Shown here piece after piece: positions 47,782 to 54,458 of a stretch of DNA of 64,000 nucleotides (position 1 is the stretch's first letter; the number at the start of each line of letters is the position of its first letter). A program made the position numbers and the translations under genes. A model generated the notes under the pieces. The model saw nothing but the letters and a program-made list of their open reading frames with translations. It ran no database searches and had not been told where the DNA came from. This DNA is from Candidatus Krumholzibacteriia bacterium (GTDB taxonomy: Bacteria > Krumholzibacteriota > Krumholzibacteriia > Krumholzibacteriales > Krumholzibacteriaceae): NCBI GenBank assembly GCA_963836185.1, contig CAWIIQ010000001.1, forward strand, positions 992,001-1,056,000, in the 5' to 3' direction.

Positions 47782-50700
47782 TTGAAAAGGGTCCTCGCAA
47801 TAACGGCGGCGGCAGCCGCGATATTCACCCTTGCCCTGGCCGGAGGCACACCGCCCCCGGCCCTCGCGCAGCAGACCATCACCTCTCCCGGGGATACATC
47901 TCTCTACCGGATCAGGTTCAACACATTCAGGTCGAGGATAGAGGACGGGCTTCAGGTCTGGCATATGGAAGGCGATGTCCGGATCGACCACCAGAACGCT
48001 ACGGTGACGAGCGAACGGGGGCGCCACTATCCCGAATTGAAGCATACGATTCTCGAGGGCGACGTGCGCGGGGTCGATGGATCGATGCGGATGTTCAGCG
48101 ATCTCGGCGAGTATTTCGGCGAGACGAATATCCTGATAATGATAGACAATGTGCGGCTGATCGACGAGGGGCTCGAGGTGACATGCCGAAGGGCCGAATA
48201 CGACAGGGAAGAGGGAACATTGATTCTCACCGGCAATGTGCGGCTCTCCGACAGCACGAGAGTCATGTATGCCGACTCGATCTTCTACGATCGTCAGATA
48301 GAGACAGCCGATGCGTGGCGGGACGTAGTCATAATAGATACGTCGGAGGATTTCTCAGTATCCGGAGCACACGGCCGGTTTTATCGCACCACGGGTGAAG
48401 CGATCATGTACGAGCACCCCGTCCTCGTCTTCGACGACCATGCCGAAGAGGAAGGACGCGTTACGAGCGAGTGGATGAGCTATGACATGGAGAAGGATGC
48501 CGGTGTCGCCGTCGGAGATGTCAACATGCTCAAGGGGCGCACCAGAGCGACGTGCGATTCGGCCTCGATCTTCAACGATGAAGGATTCATGGAACTGTTC
48601 GGTAACCCGGTCGCGAGAAGCGGCCCGTCGGGGATGACCGGTGAACGGGTGATGCTGTATTACAACGATCAGGGCGTGGAGAAGATCATTCTCCCCGAGA
48701 AGGGCCGCCTGACGGAAGCGCCGAAACCGGAATCCCCGTGGACCGGGGATTCGTGGATCGAGGGTGACTCGATCGTGATCCACATGTCGAACGATGCCGT
48801 GGATTCGGTCCAGATATTCGGTAACGCCAGGGCGATGTATTATCCATATGAGGGTGACGAGAACAAGGTCTCTAACAACTTCTCGCGTGGCGACACGATG
48901 TTCTTCAGGTTCGATGGTCCGGACCTGAGATATGTGAAGATATCCGGTGCCGCCTCGGGTACGTACAACTATCTCAACCTGGGACCTGGAGAGTCGATCG
49001 ATTCACTCGCGGCGCTCGTCGACAGCTCGATAGTGTTCAGGGAATTCGGACGGGACGCCGAGAAGATCATATATGAGGCGAGCGAGATCGAGTATTTCGC
49101 TACGACCGAGGATATCGTCATGCACGACGGCGCGAAGGTGAATTACCAGAACAAGTCCCTTACCGCCGGATATCATAAACTTCAGCTCAAGGCTGAATAT
49201 CCTCGACGCGCACGGTGAGCCGGCGCTCGATGAGAGCGGGCAGATGATGTACGGGTACGGGATGGGATACGATATGGAGACCGAGGGCGGTCTCGTGATG
49301 GACGGATCGACAAAATACGACGACGGGTATTATCTCGGCAAGAGGATCTTCAAGCAGGGCGAAGATGTGCTCAAGGTCTACAGTTCGACATACACAACAT
49401 GCGACTACAGGAAGTCACACTACTCGATGCGGGCCGGCAGGATGAAGGTCTATCTCGACGACAAGATCGTATCGGGCCCGATAACGCTCTACATAGGCGA
49501 GATCCCCTGCTTCTGGCTGCCGTACATGGTCAACTCGATACGACGGGGCCGCCAGTCGGGATTCCTCCGCCCGAATTTCGATATCGGGATCAACAGCCGC
49601 GACGGGCGTTTCATCAGGGGGCTGGGATATTACTGGGCGACGAACGACTATACGGATTTTACGCTTACGACCGATTTCAACGAGAACAGCAACTTTCGCA
49701 TACATCTTACCAACAGGTACAAGCTGAGGTACGTGCTTGGAGGGAACGTCAATCTCGATTTCTTCAGGGACTTCAACAAGAAATCGTATGAGTGGACCTT
49801 CAAGTCGAGTCACAACCAGACCTTCGGCAAGACCGCTTCCCTTCGAAGCAACCTGAGCTTTGTCAGCAGCGACGAGGCGCCTTCCTCGGTATACCGCGCC
49901 GACGACGTCGCGCGCGTCGTGGACAGGCGGATATATTCGACGATCAGCTTCAACAAGAGCTGGGGCGGAACGAGGCTCGGGCTCTCGGCGAGCCGGAACC
50001 AGACACTGAACGTGAGCTCGGACAATCCGAACGTAGTGTATATATCGAGTACGCTCCCGTCTCTTTCCTTCAATCTGCCGAGGATGTCGCTGTGGTTCGG
50101 CGAGAAACATTCGGGATCGGAGAGGGGGCTCTGGGAGGGGATCCTTCGCGAGGTGACCTGGGCGCCCAACCTGAAGGCGACACGTACGACGTCGCAGAGC
50201 GACGCGAGAAGGACTGATGATCTGACGGCGAGCTCCAGTGCTTCTATCAGCAAGCAGAACAGGTTCCTCGGGCTCAATATCGCCCCGGCGATGGGAGTAA
50301 ACTGGAGCTACGCCAATACCTTGAAAGACGAGATCAACCTGAAGTACGTCATACCTCCCCAGGCGGCGGAGATGACCGGTGATACAGTCTCCGTTCCGAT
50401 AACCATCGATCCCTCGAACAACTTTCTCAGGATAATCCTCAATGGAACGGAGAGCGATGACATCCTCATCACCGAGGGTGTATATAACACCGGCGCTTCT
50501 CTCGCGATCGAGCTGGAGAACTCGATCAATTCCTGGGCGGGCTGGGGGTCCGACCAGGTGACCGTCGCATGGCTCGACGATGGCGGAAGTACGGGAAGTT
50601 TCAGGTTCACCTCGAACGTGACAGGCACGGGATCATCGATCGAATTCGTCGATATCCCGAACGCGGTCTACGCGGCGATCGGGATCACGGCTGGGGTGCC

Positions 50701-51718
50701 GGCGTACGGATCGGACCAGTCCGGGCCGACCCCGAACGAGAGGTACAAGAACGAGGTGTCGATGCGTTTTTCTCTCAGCGTGGGAACGACGCTTTACGGA
50801 GTCTTTTATCCGAATATCGGCTCGCTGGTCGGGATCCGGCATACATTCAATCCGTCTGTCTCGTGGTCGTACGTCCCCGCGCTGACATCGAACCAGAGAG
50901 CGACCCAGGGATACAGCTGGTCATTGAGGAATGTCATAGACCTGAAATATCTCAAGGACGGCCAGGAGGCGAAGAAGAACAATGCCTTCACATGGAACAT
51001 GAGCGGAACGTACAGCCCCGAGCTGCAGGAAAGGCAGTTCTCCAATATCAGGTCGAGCATCAGGACGTCGGTGGGCAGGCTGGCCTCAATATCACTGAAC
51101 AACACGATCGATCCATACGAGTGGGAGTTACTCTCATCGAGCTTCTCGGCGAACATGAGTTTCGGCAGCGGTTTTACATGGCCGGGAAAGTGGGACCTGC
51201 CGGAGCGTGAAAAGATCAGGGTCGCGAAGGAGTTGGGCTCGGCGCCGAAGGAAAGCGATGAAGACGAGGAAGAAGACGAGATAGACAGCTACGACGGTTT
51301 CGTTTCCGATTTCGACGACGAGGATAGCTGGTCCGACGAACCAGGAGGAGGCGGACGCCCGGGAGCTTCGGGCAGAGGAACAAGCTGGTCGCTCAATATC
51401 GGCTACAGCTACTCCGGTTTCGGAGGCAACAGCATGTCGAGCCCGACGAGCAAGGTCGACATGCGCGGCAGCTTCAATTTCACGCCGAACTGGAAACTGA
51501 CTTTCAGCAATTACTTCGATATCCAGCGGCGAGAGTTTACGTCTCAGCAGTACAGCCTCATGCGTGATCTTCACTGCTGGCAGGCGGGATTCGTGCACCG
51601 CAGGTTCGGCGACGATTACTCCTATTACTTCCAGATACAGATCAAGGCGCACGGCGATCTCAAGTACGAGCAGGGAAAGAGGGGGCTCGGCGGGACCGTG
51701 CCCGGGTTCCTTGACTGA
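47782..51718 (+). CDS. lptD: putative LPS-assembly protein LptD with extended OstA-like N-terminus (one apparent frameshift)
   Basis: Signal peptide, repeated beta-jellyroll segments, YTTCD..HY, SGFLRP, GLGYYWA, RDLHCW. Removing one G at about 49168 joins 47782..49218 and 49244..51718 into about 1311 aa. Confidence 0.75.
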
Positions 51719-51918: not shown

Positions 51919-52212
51919 ATGAACAAGACTGATCTCATCGAAAAGGTCGCGAAAAAGACCGGCATGACCAAGAAGGATTCGGCCATGGTTGTCGACGCGA
52001 TCTTCAGCACAGCTCCGAAGGAAGGCATTATTGCGACAGAGCTCGCGGCCAACAGAAGAGTGCAGATAACTGGATTCGGCACCTTCCAGACCCGTAAGCG
52101 CAAGAAACGCAAGGGCCGCAATCCCCAGACGGGCGAGACCATCACGATTCCGGCGACCAAGTTCCCCGCCTTTTCGGCTGGTAAGGCTCTCAAGGGCCGC
52201 GTAGCCAAGTAA
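51919..52212 (+). CDS. hup: HU family DNA-binding protein
   Basis: [36 protein letters not shown]. Confidence 0.95.
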
Positions 52213-52230: not shown

Positions 52231-52266
52231 AGGGGCAAGGAGAATGTTTTCACTTTGCCCCTTTTT
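52231..52266 (+). terminator. intrinsic terminator after HU
   Basis: AGGGGCAA/TTGCCCCT stem followed by a T tract. Confidence 0.65.
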
Positions 52267-52288
52267 CCATTCACGTTAGAATCCATAT

Positions 52289-53677
52289 ATGACAAAGACG
52301 TCAATGATATTGAAGCTGGCCCTGCCGGCTCTTCTCTTCTTCGCTCTCGCGGCGGGATGCACCCGGGATGAACCGGTGACGATCATATTCACCGGTGACA
52401 CGCAGGGGCGCCTAGTCCCCGCCGGGTGAGGCGAGTCCGCCTCAGGCGGCGTGGCCCGGCGGGCCGCGGCACTAAGCAGGATGAGAGAGGAGACACCCGG
52501 CCTGCTGCTCATCTCAGCCGGTGATTTCTACGCGGATAAAGGCATCCTCGAGCTTTACAGGAGCCGGTTCCTGGCGAACATGATGGTGCTGGCCAGGTAC
52601 GACGCCGTCGCCGTCGGCGAGAACGAACTGTCGTATGATTTGAAGGCGATACAGGAGGAGGCTCAGACCGGCCTTCCCGTGATCTGCGCTAATCTTTACT
52701 ATGAGAACGAAAGACTGTTCCCGCCATATGTCATCAAGGAGGCAGGCGGTTCGAAGATAGGGATATTCGCGCTGCTGGGGGAGGATTCGCCCGCGATAGA
52801 GGGGATCGAGCTCAGAGACGCGGCAGTCGAGGGTAGCGATGTCGCCGCGGAGCTGCGCGGTCTCGGATGCGACCTGGTGATTCTGCTGGCTCATTTCAGG
52901 CGCGAGGAACTCGAGTCGCTTCTCTACGGGATCGAAGGAATAGACCTCGTCATAAGAGGACATACCGAGCGTGGCGAGAAGGCTTCGAGTGACTGCGCCG
53001 ATACGATCGGAGGGTCATTTCAGGATTTCGGGGTCCCTGTGCTCTATTCGGGCGACAAGGGACGTGCTCTCGGCAGGGCCGTGATGACTCCTGCGGACGG
53101 TGGATGGGAACTGACAGATACTACGCTCGTCACACTTCCCAAGTCAGCTCCGAGCGACACGATGGTCGCCTCGATGCTAAACGGTTTCTTCGTCGAGGAG
53201 GGTGTGAGGCGCAAGAAGATGCAGGTCACTCAGTTCGTCGCGCGCGATCCCATTACTGGCAAGCTCAGGGAGAAGTATATCGGAATGGCCGTCTGCGCCC
53301 GCTGCCATGACCGTACAGCGGCTGATTTCATCGTCAGTCCTCACTTTCGTACATTCGCGCGGATGACCGAGTCGGGAAACGAAAGAAACGCCAAGTGTCT
53401 CCCCTGTCATACGACCGGATACGGCAGATTCAGCGGGTATGACCCCGAATCCGACGAGAAGGGCGGCATCGATCTCAGGGGAGTCCAGTGCGAGGCGTGT
53501 CACGGCCCAGGAACTAAACACACGCGGGACGGTAAATACAAGGAGGAGGCGAGGAAGAACTGCCGGGTCTGTCACGACGCGAAGAACAGCCCGCATTTCA
53601 ATTTCCAGACCTTCTGGGCGAAAGTGGGACATCGGGCCCTCGCGGACAGCGCCGGAGCGTCAGAGGCGCACAGATAG
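52289..53677 (+). CDS. probable selenoprotein: lipoprotein with UshA-like metallophosphoesterase domain and tetraheme cytochrome c domain (in-frame TGA at 52427-52429)
   Basis: MTKTSMILKLALPALLFFALAAG-C lipobox, IIFTGDTQGRLVPAG*GESASGGVARRA in frame with ORF 52451..53677; AGD, GENE, LLAH, RGH motifs; CARCH, CLPCH, CEACH, CRVCH. Confidence 0.8.
52427..52470 (+). promoter_or_regulatory. candidate bacterial SECIS-like structure
   Basis: Hairpin TGAGGCG-agtc-CGCCTCA containing the UGA, then GTGGCCC-ggc-GGGCCGC with G in the apical loop. Confidence 0.45.
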
Positions 53678-53693
53678 ATCTTCGGATGATACT

Positions 53694-54458
53694 ATGAGAA
53701 CTCTATTGATATTTCTCTGCGTGACAGCGGTGCTGCTTTCGGCAGGTACTGTCTCGGCGGATGTCGACTTTCTCGTGCCCGGGGTCTCCCTGCATTCTAT
53801 CGATTTTACCGCGGGAACGGCGGTGTCTTACCTGATCATATCGGAGGCTCACGGCATAAGGGACAGCTCGCTTGTCACGCTGAAGGTAACGGGCAATGAT
53901 TCAGGGGCCGCCGTCCTGGAGATAAGTTCCACGACCTGGCCCCCGGTAGACGCGGAGAGGATAACCGTACGCCTGACCTTGTGCGCAAACGCCGGCGAGA
54001 TGAAGACCCCCGAGGAGTTTTACTCCTGCATAAGCGATATCCTCGTCAGGGACGGCGCGGAAGATTTCAGGGAGCCGTCACTGGAGGAACTCGAGGATTT
54101 CGATATCGGCAGGCTCTTTCTCAAGAGAAACGAGGGATTCCAGCGGCAGGAGCTCGAACCTGAGAAGGTGGAGGTCCCTGCCGGGACCTTCCCATGCGAG
54201 GTCTTCGAGTATTTCAGGAGCGACCGGCGTGACGTGGCGATGGGGGGGATCACGGCTGAACGTTTCGAGAAGGAGAGGAGCATCCTGAGGATATCCTCCG
54301 AGGTCCCCTTCTGGGGACTCGTGAGAAGCCGTGTCGAACGGAGCTCGAAAACGCTCTATCCGGGCGGCCGCAGCCAGCGAGAGACCATGCCCAAGGTCAC
54401 TGTCACCGAATCGGTCCTTCTGGACTACTCCACTCCAGGCAGGGTAGAGGGAGACTGA
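53694..54458 (+). CDS. hypothetical exported protein
   Basis: Signal peptide (VSA-D), E.VEVPAGTF.C motif, 16 nt after the cytochrome gene. Confidence 0.65.
   Translation: MRTLLIFLCVTAVLLSAGTVSADVDFLVPGVSLHSIDFTAGTAVSYLIISEAHGIRDSSLVTLKVTGNDSGAAVLEISSTTWPPVDAERITVRLTLCANAGEMKTPEEFYSCISDILVRDGAEDFREPSLEELEDFDIGRLFLKRNEGFQRQELEPEKVEVPAGTFPCEVFEYFRSDRRDVAMGGITAERFEKERSILRISSEVPFWGLVRSRVERSSKTLYPGGRSQRETMPKVTVTESVLLDYSTPGRVEGD

Follow-up and report, generated by a model that had tools for sequence, protein, structure and literature searches.

An order-specific variant of the UshA-like selenoprotein family with a predicted selenocysteine and a tetraheme cytochrome domain

The gene at positions 52289..53677 of the window, the 64,000-nt stretch of DNA analysed here, encodes a protein of 462 aa when its in-frame UGA is read as selenocysteine (Sec47), a decoding which the comparison of orthologs makes very likely. 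What is new is a variant confined to the order of the source genome (hereafter the own order), which fails both the motif and the score tests of its family; the family and its architecture have already been catalogued. The own order offers a natural experiment on the active site, in which a single branch has both lost one cysteine and gained another. This swap names the residues to be tested, and makes it answerable whether they form a redox pair, bind a metal or bind a heme. Features described below lie on the + strand unless marked otherwise.

Reading of the in-frame UGA

The frame runs from the ATG at 52289 to the TAG at 53677, and its single internal stop is the TGA at 52427..52429, which is codon 47 (PAG-U). 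The elements described in the initial annotation are all found in the sequence: the called ORF that begins at 52451 and carries four CxxCH motifs, the 46 codons preceding the TGA in the same frame and completing the 462-aa read-through product, the lipobox LAAG-C, the cysteine of which is C24, and the motifs IIFTGDTQG, DTQ, GENE and GHTE. The lipoprotein signal peptide spans 52289..52360, and Met6, at 52304, is a possible alternative start. Export and lipid anchoring, which had also been proposed, gain support as predictions from the own-order orthologs, where a hydrophobic leader core is found in 33/33 and a lipobox-like motif in 30/33. On the read-through product, Pfam assigns residues 31-226 to Metallophos and 335-406 to Cytochrome_C554.

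Within the class the gene is nearly ubiquitous, the class-wide search having matched 151/151 genomes, and in each of the 30 top-ranking class loci, among them that of the window, a TGA stands at the Sec column behind an open frame that encodes a signal peptide. Full-length orthologs occur in 49 of the 52 own-order genomes, with exactly one in-frame TGA in 49/49; the three remaining genomes are 73-82% complete, and one of them holds a TGA-bearing fragment. The sequences of 33 of the 49 orthologs were read and aligned with 37 loci picked from other families for spread, second paralogs included, giving an alignment of 70 loci. Distant representatives numbered 149 (150 were listed and one own-order entry was left out), 109 of which extend over the Sec column as well as the heme domain. 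The Sec column holds Cys or Sec in 70/70 class loci and in 107/109 distant representatives, with Cys in 12 of the 37 loci from outside the order. Near orthologs from the sister family (n=11) divide into six with TGA and five with TGY (TGC or TGT). The codon carried by homologs at 52427, which the initial annotation had proposed to check, is in this way either TGA or Cys. Many orthologs also use TGA as the terminal stop of this gene.

Database entries convey little of this, since all 120 homologs listed of the 255 found (one being the window's own) start 3' of the Sec codon, so that both the export signal and the predicted active residue are missing from them. The homologs with names are mostly from Candidatus Krumholzibacteria, to which the genome is accordingly assigned. 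A scan with the single protein returned matches only within this class, and a scan of the locus by alignment gave no usable pattern.

Behind the UGA, a predicted SECIS element occupies 52450..52468, over codons V55-A59, with a stem of 8 bp, an energy of -16.8 kcal/mol and a GGC loop (52458-52460) that starts 28 nt after the TGA. The bacterial consensus given in PMC13188914 comprises a loop of 3-9 nt with G, a stem of 4-16 bp, a spacing of 16-37 nt and an energy of at most -7.5 kcal/mol, and the hairpin agrees with it on all four points, which bears out the SECIS check suggested by the initial annotation. Its energy is not better than that of shuffled sequences (z -0.8; folding z-scores overall range from -0.8 to -2.1), and the support for the element therefore comes from its conservation. 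A hairpin, counted as such when its stem has four or more pairs and its loop GG, is present in 32/33 own-order orthologs and 23/25 other TGA genes (55/58 TGA genes in all), against 1/12 Cys genes. Across genes, stem pair 5 appears as G-C, C-G, U-A, A-U and G-U. Moreover, among 87 conserved degenerate positions (four or six codons), the lowest codon entropies belong to A56, R57, R58 and A59 (0.0, 0.2, 0.63 and 0.8 bits, with at least 1.1 at every other position), the codons of which form the SECIS stem region and its GGN loop. Two GC hairpins had been described initially, and it is the second that proved conserved; the first (52427..52444), which pairs the UGA itself, folds in this manner in 12 of the 33 own-order orthologs and was ruled out as a SECIS. 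Inside one sister lineage (L052, L053, L096-L106), a reversion from Sec to Cys is accompanied by decay of the hairpin, a small-scale loss of the SECIS.

As to the selenocysteine machinery, another check put forward at the outset, selA, selC (tRNA-Sec, anticodon UCA) and selD are present in the genome, and selB is found in frameshifted pieces at C1:47922-49803, with numerous single-base indels in comparison with two congeners. Because selB is above the cut-off and free of stops in 12/12 relatives, one of them matched only partly, its break is tentatively taken here as an assembly error. A copy of EF-Tu at C1:71107 is likewise frameshifted, which suggests a locally noisy assembly. The selD gene, with an in-frame TGA of its own (CSG-U), lies at C1:1062086-1063012, about 6 kb past the end of the window. 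A cytochrome c assembly gene is also encoded.

The UGA might alternatively be the trace of a pseudogene, of a sequencing error or of some other recoding, for instance as Trp. An error is conceivable in an assembly with indel errors, as in selB, and no public read among those shown spans codon 47: 14 public runs each held only small shares, none of the pieces shown from the contigs of four runs spans 52427, and coverage in public RNA runs is confined to the neighbouring HU gene. However, the codon is TGA throughout the order and its sole alternative is Cys, the occurrence of the SECIS follows the TGA, and a reading as Trp is at odds with the many orthologs in which TGA terminates this very gene. 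The conservation of the codon, with TGA in 49/49, the distribution of the SECIS and the alternation of TGA and TGY practically refute these explanations. The recoding proposed by the initial annotation is supported by the fixed TGA, the Cys alternative, the SECIS and the machinery.

Family, locus and paralogs

The best NCBIfam match of the protein is NF041198 (UshA_like_PCGU), with a score of 199.5 bits where the cut-off is 275; a second own-order ortholog, at 195.7 bits, also remains below it. The profile matches in two stretches, with model positions 352-519 falling on the heme domain. The cysteine of the family's CxU/CxC motif is present in 0/33 own-order orthologs; as the variant is also below the NF041198 cut-off, motif-based annotation of selenoproteins would miss it. 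Orthologs at the same locus in two other genomes (G030 and G081) exceed the cut-off, and the own order is sister to PCGU orthologs with support 98/92, as expected of a descent from CxU members. A second profile, NF049981 (UshA-like family 2, CxxU), gives 41.9 bits against a cut-off of 140, which leaves the protein outside that family. The fusion of a phosphoesterase with a tetraheme cytochrome, described in the initial annotation, is not novel: it is the architecture of NF041198 itself, which spans both domains, and it is widespread, since 109 of the 149 distant representatives have the two together. In those 109, Cys stands at U-2 in 105 and at U in 107.

The UshA-like (COG0737) selenoprotein family is listed as CxU in PMC13188914, PMC9312934 and PMC2398784, and it has been catalogued since 2008, through table entries and one passing sentence. 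UshA is not mentioned in the main text of PMC1976440, and our literature searches did not find a functional study of the family.

The gene is a vertically inherited core gene at a housekeeping locus, not a member of a respiratory cluster. Its fixed upstream neighbour is the HU gene (51919..52212), directly upstream in 17/17 loci across the class, and before HU lies a block which we take to consist of accD, folC, a ROK kinase and an LptD-like gene. The next gene downstream (53694..54458) begins 16 nt after the stop, is adjacent in 12/17 loci and is possibly co-transcribed. It encodes a 254-aa protein with a signal-peptide-like N-terminus and no match in Pfam or NCBIfam, the Atlas neighbours of which are unnamed clusters (score 0.97, of low recognition value) and a CT021-domain cluster (0.92). 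A promoter scan yielded a weak site at 52255-52282 (three sites found, 0.9 expected), on which no conclusion is based. At 52232-52267, just 3' of HU, an inverted repeat with a T run behind it resembles a terminator by eye; the scan did not list it. The LptA/LptD-like gene is split at 49218-49244 into ORFs 47782-49218 and 49244-51718, probably by an assembly frameshift; most relatives have one long ORF.

The fusion to hemes is not obligatory, because two further proteins of the genome have the domain without them. One, at C1:967523-968512 (-) (L108), carries EPCG-TGA with a hairpin behind it and is likely a second UshA-like selenoprotein of this genome, similar TGA-bearing paralogs being found in many own-order genomes. 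The other, at C6:5252-6226 (-) (L109), is an RSCG-C lipoprotein. Since the tetraheme domain is present in RSCG-C proteins of families f6 and f9, this paralog may reflect a separate loss or gain of the cytochrome.

The cysteine replacement and candidate mechanisms

Ala45 (52421..52423) occupies the position of the family's CxU cysteine. The initial annotation had remarked on this Ala in place of a partner cysteine, and the replacement turns out to be order-wide: position U-2 is A in 24, S in 3, G in 2, F in 2, V in 1 and Y in 1 of the 33 own-order orthologs, with Cys in 0/33, against Cys in 37/37 other class homologs. Conversely, Cys236 (52994..52996) is invariant in the own order (33/33) and lies in an order-specific insertion after His225, in a loop where a Cys is found in 0/37 of the others. 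The stretch H225-G255 counts 29 residues in all 33 own-order orthologs versus 19-24 elsewhere, and Cys236 is the sole invariant residue in positions 226-249 of the own order. It is present in 120/120 listed database homologs, and its column holds Cys in 0/109 distant representatives, 10 of the 92 resolved having a Cys elsewhere in the segment.

A 74-row tree, built from 19 of the 33 own-order orthologs, all 37 others and 18 representatives, shows the own order as one clade with support 100/100 and a stem of 0.69, which places the loss of Cys45 and the gain of Cys236 on one branch. The swap is a single event, and the contrast between 33 and 37 sequences therefore counts once. The coincidence is suggestive of Cys236 having replaced Cys45, and we give about even odds to Cys236 acting as the redox partner of Sec47. 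Cys133, invariant in the order (33/33), and Cys194, present in 27/33, are rival partners; outside the order they occur in 13/37 and 14/37, and their gain does not coincide with the loss of Cys45. The 'lone Sec' of the initial annotation is doubtful: the Sec is probably not alone, since the loss of the CxU cysteine coincides with the gain of Cys236 in 33/33.

The 5'-nucleotidase-type calcineurin-like domain and its linker helix extend over 52367..53215. The predicted model of the protein has a pLDDT of 91.9 and a pTM of 0.76 (0.89 for the model of a PCGU ortholog); mean pLDDT is 91 for residues 227-236 and 69 for the next ten. The N-domain with its linker helix matches 5'-nucleotidase N-domains at Z 31-32 and SoxB at Z 29.7, with rmsd 2.3-3.9. 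A comparison of isolated beta-bridges between the model and the PCGU ortholog pairs the Sec-loop bridges with each other and is uninformative on the Cys236 loop. The roles of metal-ligand and catalytic residues (DxH His, GNH His) are presumed here from UshA. On that basis, five ligands are kept in the own order (D37 33/33, D79 31/33, E111 31/33, H202 33/33 and H225 31/33), and one metal may still be bound. His is found in 0/33 at motif I and in 1/33 at the catalytic position; with both lost, nucleotidase catalysis is unlikely, and the substrate domain is absent as well, in line with the loss of nucleotidase function suggested initially. The altered metal motifs, in contrast, are no peculiarity of this protein: five ligand positions are kept in the order, and among distant members each metal ligand is kept in about half and the catalytic His position varies, with CGC retained. 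In family f7 (L046, L047, L061, L062, L076), orthologs and duplicates devoid of nearly all metal ligands keep PCG-U and the four hemes.

The cytochrome c554-type tetraheme domain, with its four CxxCH motifs, lies at 53273..53632, and the C-domain matches cytochrome c554 (1bvb) at Z 12.1, with an rmsd of 2.6 over 123 residues. Three further His are conserved (352, 411 and 448), which brings the conserved His to seven, the hemes numbering four; no Met is conserved, so that one heme would be left without a second His. In alignment, the second CxxCH corresponds to those of c554 and OcwA, in both of which heme 2 is the open site (10.1101/641308). The heme lacking a second His would, by this alignment, be heme 2.

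As a tentative reading, to which as a whole we give slightly less than an even chance, we propose a lipid-anchored extracytoplasmic Sec/Cys redox enzyme built on a 5'-nucleotidase scaffold with c554-type hemes. SelB would bind the stem-loop 28 nt downstream of the UGA and direct the insertion of Sec, after which the protein would be exported, receive its lipid at Cys24 and acquire four hemes. Sec47 is predicted in the loop that follows the first strand, on the side that in nucleotidases binds the metal and the substrate. There it would attack a substrate containing sulfur or selenium; from the example of MccSep one may guess at sulfane sulfur or a disulfide. A partner cysteine would resolve the product to an Se-S bond, to be re-reduced by the heme chain. 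This partner would be the CxU cysteine in the wider family and probably Cys236, on the loop leaving the last metal motif, in the own order. That the chemistry is redox rather than hydrolysis, as the initial annotation held, appears likely because Cys or Sec is constant at its column (70/70 loci, 107/109 representatives) while the metal ligands are kept in about half and the substrate domain is replaced. The proposal has to contend with the five metal ligands kept in the order, the heme-less paralogs, the housekeeping neighbourhood and a selB that is broken in the assembly.

The other readings overlap in part. Sec and the cysteine could be metal ligands that replace the lost first-site His, making the protein a selenolate/thiolate metalloenzyme or a metal-handling protein, possibly with SoxB-like sulfur-ester chemistry and hemes that set the redox state. 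The conservation of D37, D79, E111, H202 and H225 in 31-33/33 with the motif I His missing, the place of Cys236 in the loop after the last metal motif and the SoxB fold match at Z 29.7 all point in this direction. We nevertheless hold it to be unlikely: in families f5, f7 and f8, CGU persists in syntenic orthologs from which several or even most of the ligands have disappeared, and the metal site is therefore not the constant of the family. Alternatively, the catalytic domain could close onto the cytochrome and bring Sec to the open side of heme 2, in the manner of MccSep, with the cysteine (Cys45 in the family, Cys236 here) ligating or approaching the iron and Sec reacting beside it. Seven His for four hemes, with no conserved Met, would leave such a site vacant. 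A conserved SPxF motif may cap heme 2 instead, as in c554, and with heme-less paralogs in existence and no NF040886 match for this protein we regard an arrangement of this kind as quite unlikely.

It is more improbable that Sec is truly alone, Cys236 forming a structural disulfide or being unrelated, and hemes or a small thiol recycling the oxidised Sec. Other conserved cysteines do exist, and single-Cys variants without the insertion occur elsewhere: among distant representatives, P0164 and P0180 have a single motif Cys and no insertion Cys, and P0187 and P0266 have neither. Against this stands the gain of Cys236 together with the loss of Cys45, which Cys133 and Cys194 (13 and 14 of 37 outside the order) do not share. 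Continued activity as a nucleotidase or phosphoesterase, to which Sec and the hemes would be accessory, would agree with a fold closest to 5'-nucleotidases and with the several ligands kept, but with the catalytic His in 1/33, the motif I His in 0/33 and the substrate-binding C-domain absent it is highly improbable.

Comparison with known systems

With the 5'-nucleotidases UshA/CD73 and the thiosulfohydrolase SoxB the protein shares the N-terminal fold and the linker helix as well as, for the most part, the Asp and His ligands of the second metal. It departs from them in the loss of the motif I and catalytic His, in a change of Asn to Glu, and in having a cytochrome in the place of the C-terminal substrate-binding domain. 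Four CxxCH motifs and the c554 fold are common to its C-terminal part, Nitrosomonas cytochrome c554 and hemes 1-4 of OcwA; unlike c554, the domain is fused, smaller and without an ammonia-oxidation context, scoring 22.7 against a cut-off of 400 with NF043010.

NF041198 has the same two-domain layout, the Sec column and the GGxARR motif. Where that family has CGU, the own order has xG-U, with x being A, S, G, F, V or Y, together with an insertion of 8-10 residues that contains the invariant Cys236 and, mostly, a lipoprotein signal.

MccSep, a polysulfide reductase that joins Sec and heme 2 (PMC13510729), provides the experimentally tested precedent for joint action of Sec and a heme. Searched with the NF040886 (MccSep/ExtKL) profile, the protein gave no match at E up to 0.1. 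A separate pentaheme protein of the genome, at C1:206349-207779 (+) (L110), shows a weak ExtKL/MccSep match of 49 bits against a cut-off of 250 and has no internal stop. Should the nucleotidase domain close like a hinge and bring the open heme to the Sec/Cys pair, with the partner cysteine rebuilt 190 residues away in a new loop, the protein would have arrived at MccSep-like sulfur chemistry independently, by a second route, a scheme we consider rather doubtful. Both MccSep/ExtKL (NF040886; PMC13510729) and the present protein are exported c-type multiheme proteins with one Sec, by prediction in our case. Catalysis by Sec and heme is demonstrated for MccSep, which has five hemes, an Ig-like Sec domain and a Cys-ligated heme 2, without a phosphoesterase domain, whereas four CxxCH motifs are found here.
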